Source: Dictyostelium discoideum (lineage: Eukaryota). Taken from it: a DNA stretch of 64,000 nt. Below, one piece after another: positions 32,903 to 56,237 of this stretch. The position numbers and the translations under genes are program-made. Location: NCBI GenBank assembly GCA_000004695.1, contig CM000153.2:3168001-3232000 (forward strand), written 5' to 3'. The notes under the pieces are model-generated. The model saw nothing but the letters and a program-made list of their open reading frames with translations, was not told the DNA's origin and searched no databases. The number at the start of each line of letters is the position of its first letter. The first letter of the stretch is position 1.

Positions 32903-35594
32903 ATGTTTTCATTAAATCCACAATCAAATGGAAATAGTAATAATTTATTTGGGAATGTAACCCTTGGAAATTTTAGTAATAATAGTAATAATTTATTTGG
33001 TGGTAGTTCAACAACATCAACAAATACCAACAATAGTAATAATTTATTTGGTGGTAGTTCAACAACCAATAGTAATAATTTATTCGGTAGTGGTGGTAGT
33101 TCAACAACCAATAACAACAACTTCAATAGCAACTTCAACAATAACAATATAAAGAATGAAAATAAAATTAAAAATGGAAAGAAATTTTATAATTTTAGAT
33201 GGTCACCAACCGGAGAAATCCTATTATATAATACACTTAATAATTTTGATAATCATAATTTTGATCAAAAAAATGGTGGTAGTGATACCATACGTTATGA
33301 AATGAATACAACTTTATCAACAATTAAAAAAGTATGTATTAACTGTTATTATTATTATTATTATAATAATAATAATAATATTACAATAATACAATATATT
33401 ATAACATACTCACTCACCCATCCACCCACCCACCACTACAAAAACAATGATATTATTATTATTATCATTATTAAATAGTTTTACAATGATTTATATACAA
33501 ATTTTGAAACTATGCAAAGAATTGCAGGTCTTTCAAATCAAGTTATACCAGATGATAGAGTTAGAGAGATTTCACATCATAGTAGAACATATCTATCTGT
33601 GATTTTAGCAGCAATCAATCAAATGAGTAAATCTCAAAAAACAGGTTCATACATTGACGATGAAGATTCTTGTATGAATTGTGATCCTTTAGATAATGAT
33701 TTAATGTATGTATATGTTTATACAGAGAGAGATAGAGAGAGACAAATTGATTGATTGATTGATTTATCTATTTATTTATTATACTTACTTTCCATCATCA
33801 CTTATTTATTATTTGAAATAGTAAAATACAAACACCAAGAGTATTAGAATATTTTAAACAATATCCAAATAAAACATTAATTTTCTTTTGTGGTAGTATC
33901 GATTCAATTTATCCATATCTTTGTTCAAAATTATCAATGGAGACAAAATCAAAATGTATATTAATAGCAAGAGAATCAAATGTTCCAAATTCAAAACGTT
34001 TAGATTTAATTAGTATGTATATAAATTTATTTATATTATTATTATTTTTATTATTATTATTATTATTATTAACATTTATTTTTTATTTTTTTAAAAGGAA
34101 CAATTTCAAATCAAGGTGAACTTAAAATTTTAAATAAAGATGAATATTCAAATAGATATCAAATTGCAAATGAAAATTATGGTGAATTAGATGATGTTTT
34201 AACATTAGAGATTGATGATACTTATTTAGCATATGAAAGAGAGATAGATAATTTAATTTGTATGTCAACAATGTGGAGAGTTGCAAATTTATTTTATTTT
34301 AGTGTTTCAAGTTCATCAAATTCAGTATCACCAACTCAATTATTGGATTGTATAGAATTGGAGAGAAAAGAACTATTGAATAGCATCGAACAACAAGGTA
34401 CACAAGATCCAATGGATTCGGAATATTACAATCAAATTGCACGTCTATTGGTTTGTGGTTGTATAGATCAAGTCATTCAACAATTGAATATACTAAGTCG
34501 TGCACCAAGAAGTGCATCACAAATTAAATCAACCTCTAGAAAATCACCAATCAATCTATTGATTGATATTCTCTCTTCAATACCATTGAAAAAGAAATCA
34601 ATCAATGGTGGTGGTGGTGCACCACTCTATCCAAATGAACATTTAATTCAATGGAATAAATGGCATCAAGAAACTCAGAAAATACTCTCTCAATATATTG
34701 AAAGTGGTAGTTCAAGTACCAATCAAGTCGATGAGAACCTTTTACCAATAGTAAAGATCCTTTTAGGTGATCAACAAACTATAATGTCAACTTGTAATAG
34801 TTTTCTTCAATTGGTAGTTTCAAATATTCTCTTTGTTGAGTATACAACCTCAACCACTCAATTACGTCAACTTTTCACTCAATGTTATCAAACTATTCAA
34901 GCTCCAACAACTGTTGATAAAATTTTCTTATCATTTGCAACAAAGGATTTAGATATTGTTTGTATTAAAATAATAACTAATAATAACTAATTATAATTAA
35001 TAATAACAATATAAATTATATTTATATTAATTTTTTTTTTATTTTTATTTTTATTTTTTTAAAAATTTAAAGACATTAAAGAAAATTTTTAAACATTCAC
35101 CAGCATGGTTAGCAGTACATTTATCAGATTTATTATATCATCATCCATATGTTATGAGAAAATTACCAAATTCAGAATCACAATTAACAAATATTAGAGA
35201 ATATTTATTATCAGATTTTGGTCAATCATTAGCATCAGATTCATCGTTATTATCAATTGGTTGTAATTATTTAAAGTATGTAAAGAATGGTGGTTTGGAA
35301 ATGATTGATCAATTCATATCAAGACAACCAATTCATTTTGAAAAGAATGCAATTAAAATGTTGGATAAATGGGCTACCTCTGTTGAAACAAAGAATTCAA
35401 TCTATAAAATGTTATCACTTCAAGATTTCAAAAGAAAAAGATATGCTGCAAGTTTAAATTGGTTAATGTTGGCAAATGATAATTCACATATCACTTTATT
35501 ATCAAATTATTTATTAGAGAATCAATTAAATTCAGAATTTTTAAATGATCTACAATCATTATTAGAAAAAAATGATGAAATTGATTGTAATATA

Positions 35595-35628
<34 letters not shown>

Positions 35629-36038
35629 GTAATAATAGAATAAGTGGAAATAATAATAATAATATGATAATTGATGAAAATAAATTTGAAATTACAAATA
35701 ATAGTGAATTAATATTTTTAATTAGATATAGAGAATTAATTAGTTTATGGAAAGAAAGATCATTTAAAGAGTATTCAAGTTCACTTTGTTTGATGTTCAA
35801 AGATAGAGTTATCCCAAAACGTTTTTGGTTACGTTTACTCATTGATTGTGTTCCATTATTAGAAAGTTTAAAAAATCTTTATTTCACTTATCAAGATACA
35901 CTTCTTTTGCAATCTTGTTTAGAAGAAATCATTCAATCCCATTTATTCGATCAATACTCTTTTAATATTTCAAATCAAGATATTCAAATTTTACGTAGTG
36001 CTTTAGCTAGAAATTTAGCAAAGTCAATCATATCCTAA
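32903..36038 (+). CDS. nup85: Nucleoporin Nup85 (Nup75) homolog with an N-terminal FG-repeat extension. Five exons: 32903..33331, 33479..33705, 33822..34012, 34098..34957 and 35073..36038.
   Basis: The C-terminus '...RFWLRLLIDCVPLLESLKNLYFTYQDTLLLQSCLEEI...ILRSALARNLAKSII' matches human NUP85 '...[37 protein letters not shown]...MLRLALARNLARAII'. 'WLAVHLSDLLYHH' matches 'WFVAHLTDLLDHC', and 'LIQWNKWHQETQKIL' matches 'LELKWQHWHEECERYL'. Exon 1 also encodes four 'SNNLFG(G/S)' FG repeats before the 'YNFRWSPTGEILL' block, which matches 'YFDWGPGEMLV'. The introns use GTATGT donors. Confidence 0.8.
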
Positions 36039-43663: not shown

Positions 43664-44389
43664 TATAATAATAATTACCAAAAAATTCCATATCGCAAAT
43701 AAAATAAAGATTAAATCTATACCCAAAAGTATAAATAATGATATTTTTAAATTAAAAAAATCCTCATTTAAAACTCTTTTTTTATAAATTAAAGATTGTA
43801 AAAATCCTTGGGGTACCCATAATAATAAGAAAAAAAAATAAAGAAGTTTAAATTTATAATATTCAATATTTAATTTAATTGACCTATTTTTTAACCCTTT
43901 AATTACATAGTTATTTTCTATTATTACCTATTAATAAAAAAAAAAAAAAAAAAAAAAGTTAAAATTTATATTAATTTTGGACATGATCAAAATTAAAATT
44001 AAAATTGATATAAAATACTTACCTTTTTTTTTAAAAAAAAGAGGAATGGAATTAATATAAAAGTTATTAAAATAAAAATGTCATCAAATAAAACAAATTG
44101 AATATATGAGTTTAAATTTGAGTGAATTGCCATAACTGATGGTAACATACATAAAAGTACCATCATTATAATTGATAATAAATATGTAACATGAGGATAT
44201 TTATCAGTTTTATCGTAAACATCACCAATTATATTTAATATTGAATTGTATTCATCATTTGATAAAATACCATTTAATTTTAATGGTACTGTTTCATAAT
44301 CTTGTATAAATCTCCATTCATAGAGATTTACATCATAACAATACCCAAATTCAAATTCATATTTAAATTTAAATTTATTATTATTACTA

Positions 44390-44420
<31 letters not shown>

Positions 44421-44490
44421 TATTATTTATATTATTATTATTATCATTATTGTTTTTGATATTATTAATTTTATTTATAATAAATTCCAT
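43340..44490 (-). CDS. Hypothetical multi-exon membrane protein with an N-terminal poly-N tract. Exon 1 is 44490..44024. There are probable further exons at about 43840..43680 and 43549..43340, but the exon 1 to exon 2 junction phase is unresolved.
   Basis: ORF 43999..44490 ends at a GTAAGT donor after '...ILIPFLFFLKKK'. A downstream 54-codon open frame 'WVPQGFLQSLIYKKRVLNEDFFNLKISLFILLGIDLIFILFAIWNFL' ends at a GTAATT donor. It joins in phase 0 to a further 85-codon exon '...LFTKLNRFLIKDRRDENILITLNSNIKKFLSPMEFYLTCNN...DLDDPNV*' that follows a T11-AG acceptor. Confidence 0.4.
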
Positions 44491-44540: not shown

Positions 44541-44729
44541 AATATAATAATTATATAATAATATTTTTTACATAAATACAAGAATAAAATTAAATGAAAA
44601 AAAAAATTAAAAAAAAAAAAAATTTTTAAATTTTGTATATATTAACAAAGGGATATTAAAATGTATTTTATTTTTTTTTGTTTGGGATTTAAAAGAATTT
44701 TTTTTTTTTTTTTTTTTTTGGACAATTCT

Positions 44730-44760
<31 letters not shown>

Positions 44761-45387
44761 TTTTGCATTAACATTTTTTTGACTTAGGAACCAAAGAAAA
44801 AAAAAGTCGAAACCAATGGAAAGACTCAATTTTTAGATTTTCCCAAGCTGCCAAGAAAAATTATCTTTTTTTTTTTTTTTTTCAAAAAAAAATTTTTTAA
44901 AAAGTCATTAAAAAAAAAAAAAAAAAAAATAAAAAAAAAAAAAAATAAAAAAAAAAAAAAAATAAAAAAGATAATTTTTCAAGGAGAGATCTTTTTGATT
45001 GCGTTTTTTTAAAAAATTAGAAAGACAAAAATTGATCAAAAAAAAAAAAAAAATAAAAAAATAAAAAATAAATAAACATAAAAAAAAAAATAAAAAAGTT
45101 ATTTTTGGGGAGTTTTTTTTTTTTTTTTTTTTAATCAAAAAAATAGGAAAGTTTCACACGAATTTAAGTTTCCTGAAATTTTATTATTTTTTTTTTTTTT
45201 TTGTTTTTATTTATTTTTATTTAAACATGTTTGCAACGTTTACTAGTGAGGTGAAAATATTATTTTTATTATTATTATTATTTATTATTATTATTATTAT
45301 TATTAAAATTGAAAGTAATGATACATCTCACAGAAAAATTAATTTTTTTATTTATTTATTTATTTATTTATTTATTAATTAATTTAT

Positions 45388-45930
45388 TTATATATATCCA
45401 CTACCACCTTCACTCCTTCTTTTTCTACCAATTTTGAAATTATTACTATAATGATTAAATATGAAAACTGAAGCACCACAAAGACCCATAAAAGAGACAC
45501 AATAGAAAACAAACTTTAAAATACCAATGAAAGTTGCTCTGAGTTCCATTTTTCTAAGTTCAGTTCCATTGATAGTTCGAATACCAATTGTTGTTGCACG
45601 TGGTACATAAACACTTGATGTGAAAAATAGACCCCTTTTAATATTGATATTATTTAATGATAATACTTCTTTAAATTTTGCTACATCTTCTAATGGTACT
45701 GGTGAATTGTCATAGCATTTGCATTCTACATAGGTCTTAAAGAAAATACCATAAACTATATCAATCTCTGATCTATTATTATATTTATCCTTTAATATAA
45801 CATTTCTTTGAACATTGAAACATAATTTTCTTTCAAGCATTCTTGCAACTCTATCTTCAAAATTCATTCCTTTTTTTTTATTTTCTTTCCCTAAAGATTT
45901 TAATCTACCAATTTTACTAAATAATTTCAT
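45388..45930 (-). CDS. Restriction-endonuclease-like (Mrr_cat, PD-(D/E)xK) domain protein with a C-terminal transmembrane segment; 180 aa
   Basis: 'GMNFEDRVARMLERKLCFNVQRNV...SEIDIVYG...YVECKCYDNSPVPLEDVAKFKEVL...RGLFFTSSVYVPRATTIGIRTINGTELRKMEL' follows the Mrr_cat consensus: 'G.DFE..va.ll...G', then an acidic 'IDiv' strand, then 'vQ/ECK', then 'V..v..f.g.l', then 'G.f.TTS.ft..A', then 'I.LidG..L'. The C-terminal 'FIGILKFVFYCVSFMGLCGASVFIF' is hydrophobic. Confidence 0.55.
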   Translation of the reverse strand: MKLFSKIGRLKSLGKENKKKGMNFEDRVARMLERKLCFNVQRNVILKDKYNNRSEIDIVYGIFFKTYVECKCYDNSPVPLEDVAKFKEVLSLNNINIKRGLFFTSSVYVPRATTIGIRTINGTELRKMELRATFIGILKFVFYCVSFMGLCGASVFIFNHYSNNFKIGRKRRSEGGSGYI

Positions 45931-46017
45931 TTCTGTATATATTTAATAATTTAATTTTATATAAAAAAGATTTTTTTTTTTTATATTTAATTATGTGTGG
46001 TTGTGTTGTTTATTGAT

Positions 46018-46060
<43 letters not shown>

Positions 46061-46212
46061 CATATGACGTTTTAATTTATCATAAAAAGTTTTTTTTTTT
46101 TAAAATTTTTAAAAATAAAAAAAAAATAAAATTAATAAAATTCCCAAAAAATCCATTTTTTTTTTTTTTTTTTTTTTTAATTATTAGACGAAATTAAAAG
46201 AAAAAAAAGAAA
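45931..46212. promoter_or_regulatory. A 282-bp divergent intergenic region between the Mrr-cat gene (-) and the HPD-motif gene (+); a presumed shared promoter
   Basis: Head-to-head start codons flank an AT-rich spacer with long (dA)/(dT) runs. Inferred from arrangement only. Confidence 0.3.
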
Positions 46213-48378
46213 ATGATAAAGAAAAAAGTTATAATAAATTATAATAAATATATTCAAAAAATATTTAATAATAATTATCAGATATATAGAATAAATTCAT
46301 TATATTCAAATAATAATAGGATTAACCATAACTATGGTAATATCATTAATGAAAATAATAATATAATAATAAATTATAATAACTTTAATTCATTTATTTA
46401 TAATAAAATTAATTATTGTTCAACGACAACATCTAAAATTATTGAAAAACAACAAGAAATTAATAAAAACAATAAAATTGCGTTAAAGAAATTTTTTTTA
46501 AAAGTTCACCCAGATTTATTTTTTCAATTTCCAAATATAAAGAAAACTAATGATAAATCACTCTCATTGTTACATTCATTTTTAGAAGAGATTAAAACGG
46601 AAAGATTATCAAGAAAACAATATGATTTACAATTTTATTATTTAGATAATAATATTTATGATAATGAGAATGATATACCATTCTTCAATATTAAATTCTC
46701 TGTTAATATATCATCATCATCATCATCGAATTCATTCGATAAAATTGCATATCATTTACAAGATGCACAAGAACAAATTCAACAATTTTTTAAATTATTA
46801 TCAATTAAAGAAGAATTCATACTTCATAGTATGATTGGTAATAAATCATCATTATCATCAAATAATAATGATATAAATTTAAATAATGATAGTTTATTAT
46901 ATTTTGTAAAGAATTTATCAAATTTTGCAAGAGAAACATCAAAAAATTTCATTGACCAAGAAAGAGAAATCGATTTAATGTATACCTATTTCTATATGGA
47001 ACATAAAATTAGAGTATTATTTCAAGATCATAATTTAGCATTGGATGAAAGAAAAAAACTTTTAAAAAAGTTAGAAAAACTGTTAAATAAATTATCACCA
47101 AAAAGTTTTCAAAATATTGGAATTGTGAATCAAATTTTTGAAAGAGATGAATCAATTGAAAATAAAAATAAAAATAATAATTATAATAATGGTGGTAGAG
47201 GGAGAAAAAGGAATGATAGATTGGAATCATTTGATTTAGATGATGATGAAATTGATAGACAAGGTGATAGATATCAAGGATTCGGTCAGAGATTAAGAAA
47301 CTCTGATCAAGAGACTAAACAAGAGATTATGGAACAATTTTCAATGTTTAGTGGATCAAATAAGAATCAATTCTCTGGTTGGCAACATATAAAGTCTGGT
47401 TATATTACACCAGAATCAAATCCAAAACAAGATGATTCAAAACTATCAGATCGTTTAGAAGGCGTTTCAGTGGTTTTCTCATCAAAGCTACCAAATGGCA
47501 TTGACTCTGAAGGTAGATTAATTTTAAATACAACTAAAAAGAAACAATCAACACTCTCTGAATGGACTAAAACTATTGAAACTTTTAAACCATCGACAAT
47601 AATTGAAAATATTAAAAATTGTAAAAATAGACAATCAATTGAAAAACAATTAGCAAAATACTTTAAAGTTGGTTTCATATTCACAGATTATGATAAACAA
47701 AATCAAAAACAATATCTACAATTATTAGATAGACTTATTTCAATTGGTAATTTTAAACATCAAAAATCAATCGAGAAATCTTATCAACAAGATTTAAAAG
47801 ATCAAGAAATTTTATTAAAACAACAATTACAAAATAATCATGGTATTCAAAGTTTTACAAAAGATCAATTCATAAATAATAAAGATGGTGAAAAAGAAGG
47901 AGGGGGAGAAGAGGATGAAGATTTTAATATTAAAGGTTTAGAAGAAATTAGTTTAAAAATTTTAATGAATGATCAAAAAACAACAAAACCAAATAATACC
48001 AATCAAAAAGAATTATATTGGAAATTCGATCCAACATTGGGTGTAATTAATGTACCGTTAAATGCAAATTATCAAGATATTATTAAATTTTTAAAATTAA
48101 ATCATGAATCAATTAAAATTGAATTTGAAAGACATAAAATTAATATGAGAAATATTGCTCAACTTGAATTAACTTTTAAACGTCAATTTAGATTATTAAC
48201 ATTAAAAAAAGTTGATCAAACAATCACTTTAAATGAAATGGTATCATGTTTAAGAAGATTATTATTTAACCATCAACCTTACTTACCCTATTTTTATGGT
48301 ATGAAAGTAATAATTGGTAGAGAAAATAAAATTAATCCTGATGGTTCAATAGTTATAAAATGGGATTTCGAATTATAA
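46213..48378 (+). CDS. HPD-motif protein, possibly of the DUF4460/DUF4461 (TCAIM-like, mitochondrial) family; 721 aa
   Basis: The N-terminus is basic and N-rich (presequence-like). Then comes 'IALKKFFLKVHPDLFFQFPNIKKTNDKSLSLLHSFLEEIK', a J-domain-like helix II/HPD element followed by 'FF', as I recall for DUF4460. There is a conserved-looking C-terminal block '...FKRQFRLLTLKKVDQTITLNEMVSCLRRLLFNHQPYLPYFYGMKVIIG'. The family assignment is from memory and is not verified. Confidence 0.35.
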   Translation: MIKKKVIINYNKYIQKIFNNNYQIYRINSLYSNNNRINHNYGNIINENNNIIINYNNFNSFIYNKINYCSTTTSKIIEKQQEINKNNKIALKKFFLKVHPDLFFQFPNIKKTNDKSLSLLHSFLEEIKTERLSRKQYDLQFYYLDNNIYDNENDIPFFNIKFSVNISSSSSSNSFDKIAYHLQDAQEQIQQFFKLLSIKEEFILHSMIGNKSSLSSNNNDINLNNDSLLYFVKNLSNFARETSKNFIDQEREIDLMYTYFYMEHKIRVLFQDHNLALDERKKLLKKLEKLLNKLSPKSFQNIGIVNQIFERDESIENKNKNNNYNNGGRGRKRNDRLESFDLDDDEIDRQGDRYQGFGQRLRNSDQETKQEIMEQFSMFSGSNKNQFSGWQHIKSGYITPESNPKQDDSKLSDRLEGVSVVFSSKLPNGIDSEGRLILNTTKKKQSTLSEWTKTIETFKPSTIIENIKNCKNRQSIEKQLAKYFKVGFIFTDYDKQNQKQYLQLLDRLISIGNFKHQKSIEKSYQQDLKDQEILLKQQLQNNHGIQSFTKDQFINNKDGEKEGGGEEDEDFNIKGLEEISLKILMNDQKTTKPNNTNQKELYWKFDPTLGVINVPLNANYQDIIKFLKLNHESIKIEFERHKINMRNIAQLELTFKRQFRLLTLKKVDQTITLNEMVSCLRRLLFNHQPYLPYFYGMKVIIGRENKINPDGSIVIKWDFEL

Positions 48379-55268: not shown

Positions 55269-56237
55269 ATGTGTGAAAAAGAAATTAATAATAATAATAA
55301 TAATAATGAATTAACTGAAAAATCTAAAGAGGAAATTGAAAAAGATGAAATTGAATACTTGGAATATTTAAAATATAGGAAAGAAATTATTGATAGTCAT
55401 TGTCATATTCATGAAGATGTTGAACATTTACAAGAGTCATGTGATTTACCATTTAAAAAGATATTACTCATGGGTACAACAGTTGAAGATTGGGATAAAA
55501 TTAACCAATTAGCCGATAAGATCAATGATGATAATAAAATCATTAGATGTTTTGGTATACATCCTTGGTTTGTTTATAATTATTTACCACCAACTGAATT
55601 AATTGGTAAAATAAAAGAAGGTGATGGCAGTAATGATTCAATAATAATAAGTATTGACGAAACGTGGAGAATTAAAATGAAAGAATTGTTACTAAAATAT
55701 CCAAATTCAATAGTGGGTGAAATTGGTATTGACAAGGTGACAAAAGTTAGATTAAATGGATTTAATAAGAATGACCAGGAGAGCCAAATGAGGGTGTTTA
55801 GAGACCAGATTGAGATAGCCAATGAATTGGACAGATTGGTTAGTTTACATTGTGTACAACTCCAAGGTCAACTATTAACATTCTTCCAATCACTTGATAT
55901 TGATAAATTCCCACCTGCAATTGCACTACATACTTTTGGTGGTAAACCTGCTACAGTCGATCAATTTTGTAAAATGGCATCTGGAAAAGGTGATAAATTC
56001 TATTTCGGTCTATCATTTATAAATTTAACATTTTCAAAAGTTGATAAACTCATTCAAGCAATTCCTGATGACAGATTATTACTAGAAAGTGATCAAAATT
56101 CACCAACCCAAGTTGATCAATCATTATTTAAATTAATTCAAAAAATTTCAATTTCAAAAAATTGGACAATTCAAAAAACAATTGAACAAACAACTTTAAA
56201 TACTTTAAATTTTCTTTCAAAGCAAATTAAAAAATAA
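55269..56237 (+). CDS. TatD-family metal-dependent DNase/hydrolase
   Basis: TatD signature blocks are present: 'IIDSHCHIHED', 'GEIGIDKV', 'LVSLHCVQ', 'AIALHTFGG' and 'LLLESDQNSP'. 322 aa, single exon. Confidence 0.8.
   Translation: MCEKEINNNNNNNELTEKSKEEIEKDEIEYLEYLKYRKEIIDSHCHIHEDVEHLQESCDLPFKKILLMGTTVEDWDKINQLADKINDDNKIIRCFGIHPWFVYNYLPPTELIGKIKEGDGSNDSIIISIDETWRIKMKELLLKYPNSIVGEIGIDKVTKVRLNGFNKNDQESQMRVFRDQIEIANELDRLVSLHCVQLQGQLLTFFQSLDIDKFPPAIALHTFGGKPATVDQFCKMASGKGDKFYFGLSFINLTFSKVDKLIQAIPDDRLLLESDQNSPTQVDQSLFKLIQKISISKNWTIQKTIEQTTLNTLNFLSKQIKK

Follow-up and report, generated by a model that had tools for sequence, protein, structure and literature searches.

A Dictyostelium discoideum gene for an Mrr-type nuclease domain with a predicted membrane helix, and its apparently old eukaryotic family

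We analysed a stretch of 64,000 nucleotides of nuclear DNA from Dictyostelium discoideum (assembly GCA_000004695.1, contig CM000153.2, positions 3,168,001 to 3,232,000 of the forward strand; 22% GC), hereafter the window, in which the reverse strand carries a small gene for an Mrr-type nuclease domain followed by a predicted C-terminal membrane helix. The gene occupies 45388..45930 and consists of an intronless open reading frame (ORF) running from ATG to stop over 180 codons plus the stop codon. An earlier interpretation made from the letters and their ORFs (the sequence-only reading) had described it as a free-standing, membrane-anchored copy of an overwhelmingly prokaryotic restriction-nuclease domain, with an end suggestive of a tail anchor, that might reflect horizontal transfer or a role in organelle DNA maintenance. 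Here, the gene was followed through profile, structure, family and genome searches, which point to membership of an apparently old eukaryotic family.

The nuclease gene and its predicted protein

The gene, the parts of its protein and the adjoining intergenic region were located as follows (coordinates within the window; AF2, AlphaFold2).

45388..45930, reverse strand: whole coding sequence, Mrr-type nuclease with C-terminal membrane helix (ORF list, translation, orthologues with the same start)
45871..45930, reverse strand: basic N-terminal segment, residues 1-20 (MKLFSKIGRLKSLGKENKKK), a candidate short targeting presequence (composition, AF2 helix)
45556..45870, reverse strand: Mrr_cat / PD-(D/E)xK nuclease domain, residues 21-125
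45856..45858, reverse strand: codon of E25, the conserved Glu on helix alpha-1 (E in 186 of 186 aligned sequences; codon checked)
45760..45762, reverse strand: codon of D57, the catalytic Asp in the strand 'SEIDIVYG' (D in 209 of 210; codon checked)
45718..45726, reverse strand: codons of E69-C70-K71, the (D/E)xK motif in 'YVECKCY' (codons checked)
45457..45534, reverse strand: predicted transmembrane helix, residues 133-158 (Kyte-Doolittle; inside AF2 helix 122-175)
45388..45456, reverse strand: short basic C-terminal tail (NHYSNNFKIGRKRRSEGGSGYI) and stop codon (translation)
45931..46212, no strand assigned: divergent intergenic region of 282 bp, AT-rich (10% GC), presumed to act as a bidirectional promoter (coordinates, GC)

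The closest database match was a D. discoideum protein (P0001) with 99% identity, relative to which the window protein differed at Y50H and S173N; a sequence identical to the window protein was absent from a collection of 15 billion proteins, so that another strain or assembly is the probable source of the window. Full-length orthologues with the same start were found in four other Dictyostelium species, and identity to the nuclease was 57-84% for the other aligned dictyostelid proteins and up to 63% for other matches. The gene appears to be a native, single-copy nuclear gene of D. discoideum.

Profile score, predicted fold and catalytic residues all place the nuclease in the Mrr_cat domain family. 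The Pfam profile Mrr_cat (PF04471) matched it over profile positions 6-97 of 115 with 28.0 bits (curated gathering cut-off 21; E=2.6e-6), and the sequence blocks on which the sequence-only reading had based the same assignment were all present in the translation. Mrr_cat was also matched by 35 of 36 aligned homologues, with a best E-value of 2.2e-15, while NERD, PDDEXK_15 and UPF0102 were secondary Pfam matches among these 36. No second domain was found in the window protein in the Pfam search. Whether queried by the protein alone or by the family profile, PDB sequences gave chance matches or none, and a fold search was therefore needed. The AF2 model built from the family alignment (mean predicted local distance difference test score 93.9, predicted template modelling score 0.79) showed a core of alpha, three-beta, alpha and beta elements followed by a single long helix at residues 122-175; the core has the PD-(D/E)xK fold, and its nearest known structures were Mrr-like.

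Conservation was counted over 214 family sequences aligned to the family profile, and only where a sequence covered the position. The catalytic residues are retained and proved essentially invariant across the family: E25 was E in 186/186 sequences, D57 was D in 209/210, E69 was E in 213/214 and K71 was K in 214/214. Because these four positions scarcely vary, the residue pattern is that expected of an enzyme still cutting, and the nuclease is likely active. D48, S54, Y73, K85, P110 and R111 were also nearly invariant, and VAKFKEVL, downstream of the ExK strand, formed a signature motif of the family. The middle residue of ExK, C70, was Cys in 214/214 sequences; this strict conservation might reflect metal sensitivity, redox sensitivity or packing. 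The bacterial Mrr proteins that were recovered had Q-A-K or Q-T-K where the family has its invariant E-C-K.

A C-terminal transmembrane helix had likewise been described, and it was borne out by a hydrophobic window at residues 133-158 with a layout conserved in the family. In the D. discoideum protein the top 19-residue window (FVFYCVSFMGLCGASVFIF) had a Kyte-Doolittle mean of 2.1, and a hydrophobic window (mean of at least 1.2) starting about 15 residues past the domain was present in 144 of 163 full-length members, which makes the layout of domain plus helix a family trait. The more specific description of a tail anchor held for part of the family. The D. discoideum protein has the geometry of such an anchor (helix 133-158, a Lys/Arg-rich tail of 22 residues past it and a basic, non-hydrophobic N-terminus), and the tail measured 18-22 residues in four Dictyostelium orthologues and 9 in Cavenderia. 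Across the family, the median tail was 49.5 residues, a tail of 30 residues or fewer was found in 36 of the 144, and some members had 200-330 residues. Thus, judged by these lengths, 'tail-anchored' would fit the dictyostelid proteins and not the family.

Family members and their distribution

A search with the single sequence returned 45 relatives and a profile search 168, the best 120 of which were listed, all at E<=1e-47. Searched exhaustively with the profile, 1.84 billion cluster representatives yielded 160 sequences at E<=1e-30, 299 at E<=1e-10 and 738 at E<=1e-3. Since the counts rise no more steeply than this as the cut-off is loosened, the family appears compact, and by sequence it seems small and sharply separate from the very large prokaryotic Mrr_cat family. 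The gene is thus no lone copy.

The named members came from Dictyostelia, Variosea, Protosporangiida, Cavosteliida, Tubulinea and Blastocystis. Among dictyostelids these were five Dictyostelium species, Polysphondylium, Cavenderia, Acytostelium and Synstelium; further Amoebozoa with members were Planoprotostelium, Clastostelium, Soliformovum, Phalansterium and Arcella. Outside Amoebozoa, three Blastocystis lineages were named, and one MMETSP and several EukProt transcripts also belonged to the family. Database labels of the members read 'Restriction endonuclease type IV Mrr domain-containing protein' or 'hypothetical', and in the literature searched we found no paper on a membrane-anchored eukaryotic Mrr-type group.

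Six members from metagenomes were checked on their contigs, of which five lay amid eukaryotic genes and the sixth was uninformative. The first contig carried fragmented, intron-bearing genes for CBP80-type MIF4G, DPH3/DPH4, FAM92 and COP9 proteins; on the others the family member stood beside a CFAP74-like gene, beside IFT20 and a PH-domain gene, beside a dual-specificity phosphatase gene, and (P0216) beside RabGAP-TBC/LIM and DHHC/ankyrin genes. Introns were evident in the Planoprotostelium and Blastocystis orthologues, whose genes span more DNA than their coding length. Overall, the family as sampled here appears confined to eukaryotes, namely Amoebozoa, Blastocystis and uncultured protists.

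A subgroup of longer proteins (P0179, P0189 and P0216, the last at L012 9001..10611; 508-536 residues) carried about 20 inserted residues that separate the Asp and ExK strands (…IDVIGKNRSLINRFFTIPAYLPYGARQIFVECKQY…) and about 330 additional residues past the membrane helix.

Localisation, possible roles and origin

In textbook composition, a mitochondrial presequence has few acidic residues and abundant Arg, Ala, Leu and Ser. Residues 1-20 of the D. discoideum protein include 8 basic residues and 1 acidic residue, are helical in the AF2 model and have a hydrophobic moment of 0.58-0.59 (residues 1-12). Across the family, the region before G21 contained 3.5% D+E, cf. 10.2% in the domain, and 19.8% K+R; its median length was 22 residues, and it reached at least 35 residues in 58 of 173 members. 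The first 20 residues of family members comprised 11% R, 13% A, 11% L and 9% S, with 2.4% D+E and a median net charge of +4, and at most one acidic residue occurred within the first 30 residues or fewer in 146/173 members. Blastocystis N-termini were of an MLS..R..-type, for example MLSSSRSLSMIRRLFTTA and MFSRSILSLSNKASSSLMKK. Mitochondrial targeting by these presequence-like N-termini is therefore plausible by composition, and we give roughly even odds that the nuclease is mitochondrial. The nuclease was not mentioned in the main texts of the D. discoideum mitochondrial and spatial proteome papers and of the Acanthamoeba mitochondrial proteome paper.

The reading that we favour, with a probability of about 0.5 for the whole of it, is that the protein is an active, membrane-tethered, mitochondrial DNA nuclease of an old eukaryotic family with a role related to mitochondrial DNA (mtDNA). 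We infer catalytic activity, DNA as the substrate, mitochondrial location and topology from the features described above. The nuclease would be synthesised in the cytosol and directed by its basic, acid-poor N-terminal segment to mitochondria or, in Blastocystis, to the mitochondrion-related organelle. With a presequence ahead of it and a helix behind, the nuclease domain would by the most direct path of import end up in the matrix, anchored in the inner membrane: it would pass through the import channel first, and the C-terminal helix would then arrest in the inner membrane. The metal-dependent nuclease would stay tethered there, facing the matrix near mtDNA nucleoids, and would act in the maintenance, turnover or quality control of mtDNA by cutting or trimming DNA.

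Several observations weigh against this proposal. Acanthamoeba was absent from the named matches (the best 120 of 168 in the profile search), and Acanthamoeba has mtDNA, so that the distribution of the family does not simply track mtDNA. The domain was preceded by fewer than 20 residues in 74 of 173 members (~40%), which would be too short for a classical cleavable presequence unless these gene models are truncated, and the D. discoideum segment itself has just 20. The short basic tail of the dictyostelid proteins would equally suit a tail anchor in the outer mitochondrial membrane or the endoplasmic reticulum (ER), with the nuclease facing the cytosol. The active site also departs from that of canonical Mrr, since the first Asp of motif II (DGGID) is missing, with N-x-S-[EQ]-I-D in its place; the residue four ahead of D57, R53, varies within the family, where bacterial examples read DGGID, DSGID or DEGID. 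The nearly invariant D48 and S54 lie close to the missing position. Both aspartates of motif II (D-G-G-I-D) are essential in Mrr according to Smith et al. 2009, as cited in PMC12292046.

The strongest competitor, possible and clearly less probable than the mitochondrial nuclease, is a cytosol-facing, tail-anchored defence nuclease, with its helix inserted post-translationally in the ER, the nuclear envelope or the outer mitochondrial membrane. Its targets would be foreign DNA, e.g. methylated DNA of bacterial prey, endosymbionts or giant viruses, in the manner of bacterial Type IV restriction. The tail geometry of the dictyostelid proteins would allow this arrangement, but that geometry is not conserved (median tail of 49.5 residues, 30 or fewer in 36/144), and in many members the domain is preceded by a long extension of the kind typical of imported proteins, acid-poor and Arg/Ala/Ser-rich. 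In addition, the nuclease has no DNA-recognition domain such as the N-terminal winged helix of bacterial Mrr, none of the window protein, P0010 and P0080 matched a PADLOC model at E<=0.01, and the gene is apparently single-copy and slowly evolving, without signs of the diversification usual for defence genes.

A less probable alternative, and one that we consider unlikely, is that the protein keeps the nuclease fold without cutting DNA and serves as a membrane-tethered nucleic-acid-binding or RNA-processing factor. Its models would be RAP-domain and other PD-(D/E)xK-fold proteins that are built into mitochondrial ribosomes. The observations that bear on it are the missing motif-II Asp on the one side and, on the other, the essentially invariant E25, D57, E69 and K71.

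The mitochondrial reading can also be extended, quite speculatively, to an inner-membrane-tethered Mrr-type protist enzyme for the selective degradation of mtDNA. Mrr enzymes depend on DNA modification, and PD-(D/E)xK enzymes on metal. In Physarum, a Mg2+-dependent DNase activity inside intact mitochondria digests the nucleoids of one parent after mating by a mechanism called unknown (PMC8864008). On the grounds of taxon (Amoebozoa), nuclease class and presequence-like N-termini, the family could conceivably supply this DNase, although we consider it a long shot; an Mrr-like sensitivity to DNA modification could then provide the discrimination between the mtDNA of the two parents.

Mrr nuclease domains are regarded as parts of prokaryotic defence. 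The present gene encodes a minimal version that joins an apparently intact active site to a membrane helix and is strongly constrained in at least two distant eukaryotic groups plus many uncultured protists. To our knowledge, protists lack some of the mtDNA machinery of animals and fungi, and the enzymes of selective mtDNA digestion have not been identified in protists. If mitochondrial, the family would add an unstudied nuclease to protist mtDNA maintenance or turnover; if facing the cytosol instead, it would be a rare case of eukaryotes putting a restriction-nuclease descendant to use at a membrane. The gene overturns nothing, but it may encode an organelle or membrane nuclease that has gone unstudied, in a model that is genetically tractable.

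As to origin, the proposal of a horizontal acquisition by the amoeba was not sustained. That the Dictyostelium lineage recently received a restriction gene from a bacterium or phage is very improbable. Such a transfer would account for the intronless D. discoideum gene and for the overwhelmingly prokaryotic distribution of Mrr_cat (Pfam description; Steczkiewicz et al. 2012, PMC3424549), but orthologues occur across Dictyostelia, other Amoebozoa and Blastocystis, with introns in the genes of other species. The GC content at third codon positions (GC3) was 0.149 in the nuclease gene, cf. 0.075-0.246 in twenty other ORFs of the window, and the composition is thus native. A neighbour-joining tree grouped Dictyostelia and Blastocystis in a clade each, with bootstraps of 53 and 96, and the inner branching of the dictyostelids fitted a close relationship among D. 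discoideum, D. citrinum and D. dimigraforme, such that the orthologues track species groups. The tree is informative for such shallow clades only; its deep nodes are unresolved and its rooting is unreliable, because the bacterial sequences aligned only partly. What these results indicate in place of a transfer is vertical conservation through Dictyostelia and an ancient eukaryotic family, an outcome that the sequence-only reading had itself named as refuting.

Searches for a prokaryotic or viral source pointed the same way. No relative with VAKFKEVL was found in 185,579 prokaryotic species genomes in a GTDB scan, and a second GTDB scan with the family consensus returned just four generic bacterial Mrr proteins, through words of the 'FVTTSTYT' type. 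These four were 27-36% identical over residues 5-105 and scored 13-18 bits against the family profile, on which the 150 top-scoring family proteins scored at least 131 bits. A tblastn search against 72,556 plasmids and 50,697 phage records found no relatives, an IMG/VR scan found no viral relatives, and NCBIfam held no matching model. A profile search started from the divergent long members gave 7 matches dominated by low-complexity words and added no taxon names, and an alignment of half-domains yielded no stretch usable as a search pattern.

One bacterial protein shared particular blocks with the eukaryotic family. This 370-residue protein, encoded at L009 77..1189 (+) on a metagenome-assembled genome contig labelled Klebsiella pneumoniae, has its nuclease domain at the N-terminus, shares 'KGDALEKR' and 'VECKNY..VPVDD' with the family, has ExK, unlike classical Mrr, and scored 15.7 bits on the family profile. 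The eukaryotic family could have arisen from a bacterial lineage of this kind.

Overall, the family appears to be old and eukaryotic, and by its sequences is without signs of recent transfer. At some depth the Mrr-type domain is surely of prokaryotic origin, by an event older than the divergence of the sampled Amoebozoa. The presence of members in Blastocystis and flagellated protists would reflect either a very old family lost many times or gene transfer from one eukaryote to another. The Mrr_cat/DUF2034 group had already been listed in eukaryotes, with no transfer detected and the phylogeny unresolved (Steczkiewicz et al. 2012, PMC3424549). That the frame is a chance ORF in AT-rich DNA and no gene at all, for which nothing speaks except its small size, is negligible in view of the 99%-identical deposited D. 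discoideum protein, the 57-84%-identical dictyostelid relatives, family-profile E-values down to 1e-73 and a fold predicted at high confidence.

Gene neighbourhood and comparison with known systems

Window ORFs around the nuclease gene encode proteins of ordinary eukaryotic kinds, namely DNA polymerase delta, Nup85, ATG9, a PROPPIN, an RNB exoribonuclease, a TatD DNase and an F-box/WD40 protein. The divergent neighbour across the 282-bp intergenic region, which the sequence-only reading had noted for its HPD motif, was located at 46213..48378 (+); its 721-residue product contains DUF4460 (E=5e-26) and DUF4461 (E=9e-21), with HPD at residue 99. We take this DUF4460/DUF4461 architecture to be that of TCAIM. 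TCAIM is described as a mitochondrial DNAJC co-chaperone in a review (PMC13149161) and a preprint (10.1101/2021.04.20.440500). The same divergent pairing was found in D. purpureum (neighbour at L005 3745..5712) and was absent in Cavenderia and Planoprotostelium. A functional link to the TCAIM-like neighbour was therefore rejected, as a pairing conserved only within the genus Dictyostelium is ordinary local synteny and no evidence of such a link.

A TatD-family DNase gene at 55269..56237 (+) lies about 9 kb from the nuclease gene, and a TatD gene also lies near the D. purpureum orthologue (L005 1..734), which indicates conserved local synteny. Two ORFs at 34262..34990 (+) and 35154..36038 (+) matched Nup85 profile positions 88-313 and 346-557 and are presumably exons of one gene with a short intron between them. 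A 163-residue ORF at 43999..44490 (-) has a long Asn-rich run and hydrophobic C-terminal segments, and matched no Pfam family above cut-off (DUF237, 16.5 bits vs 25). Downstream of the nuclease gene, 44600..45230 consists mostly of long A/T homopolymer runs of up to ~30 nt, which are typical of Dictyostelium intergenic regions. No tRNA genes were found in the whole window.

Among known systems, NERD (PF08378) is also a PD-(D/E)xK family and matched 23 of the 36 members weakly as a secondary hit (best E=1.8e-5); it was always weaker than Mrr_cat, and the window protein scored 13.1 bits vs a cut-off of 22.1. The match of the nuclease domain to the CRISPR ancillary effectors Can2, Card1 and Cdn1 was structural only; these are prokaryotic fusions with CARF sensors and have no membrane helix. 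The Mrr-like Archaeoglobus fulgidus protein AF1548 (PDB 1Y88), to which no function is assigned, is archaeal and soluble, has 184 residues with an extra domain, and gave no sequence-level match when the family profile was run against PDB.

The PD-(D/E)xK classification groups Mrr_cat with RRG7/DUF2034 (PF10356), a small eukaryotic protein that in fungi bears the name 'required for respiratory growth protein 7, mitochondrial' (PMC3424549). As its name marks it as mitochondrial, RRG7 may by analogy be regarded as the nearest precedent for a mitochondrial Mrr-like protein. Orthology to RRG7 was rejected: none of the 36 members matched PF10356 at E<=1, and hhalign of the family profile against a yeast Rrg7 sequence, which itself scored 243.8 bits on PF10356, gave a probability of 3%. 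This Rrg7 sequence has QCK, cf. ECK in the family, and no C-terminal helix was evident in it by eye.

With bacterial Mrr (PF04471) the nuclease shares the catalytic fold and the order of blocks (alpha-1 Glu, beta-2 Asp, beta-3 (E/Q)xK, helix), followed after the ExK helix by a 'FVTTSxYT' strand and then an 'IxLIDGxxL' strand. Bacterial Mrr has an N-terminal winged-helix (Mrr_N) domain, with 150-230 residues upstream of the nuclease domain, whereas the nuclease described here has just 20. The family differs further in its ExK with invariant Cys, where bacterial Mrr has QxK/QAKR, and in N-x-S-[EQ]-I-D in place of D-G-G-I-D. Because it is without the N-terminal DNA-recognition domain and one motif-II Asp, the nuclease does not fully qualify as an Mrr Type IV restriction enzyme; unlike the bacterial Type IV enzymes, it is encoded by a nuclear eukaryotic gene and combines the Mrr_cat domain with a C-terminal transmembrane helix.
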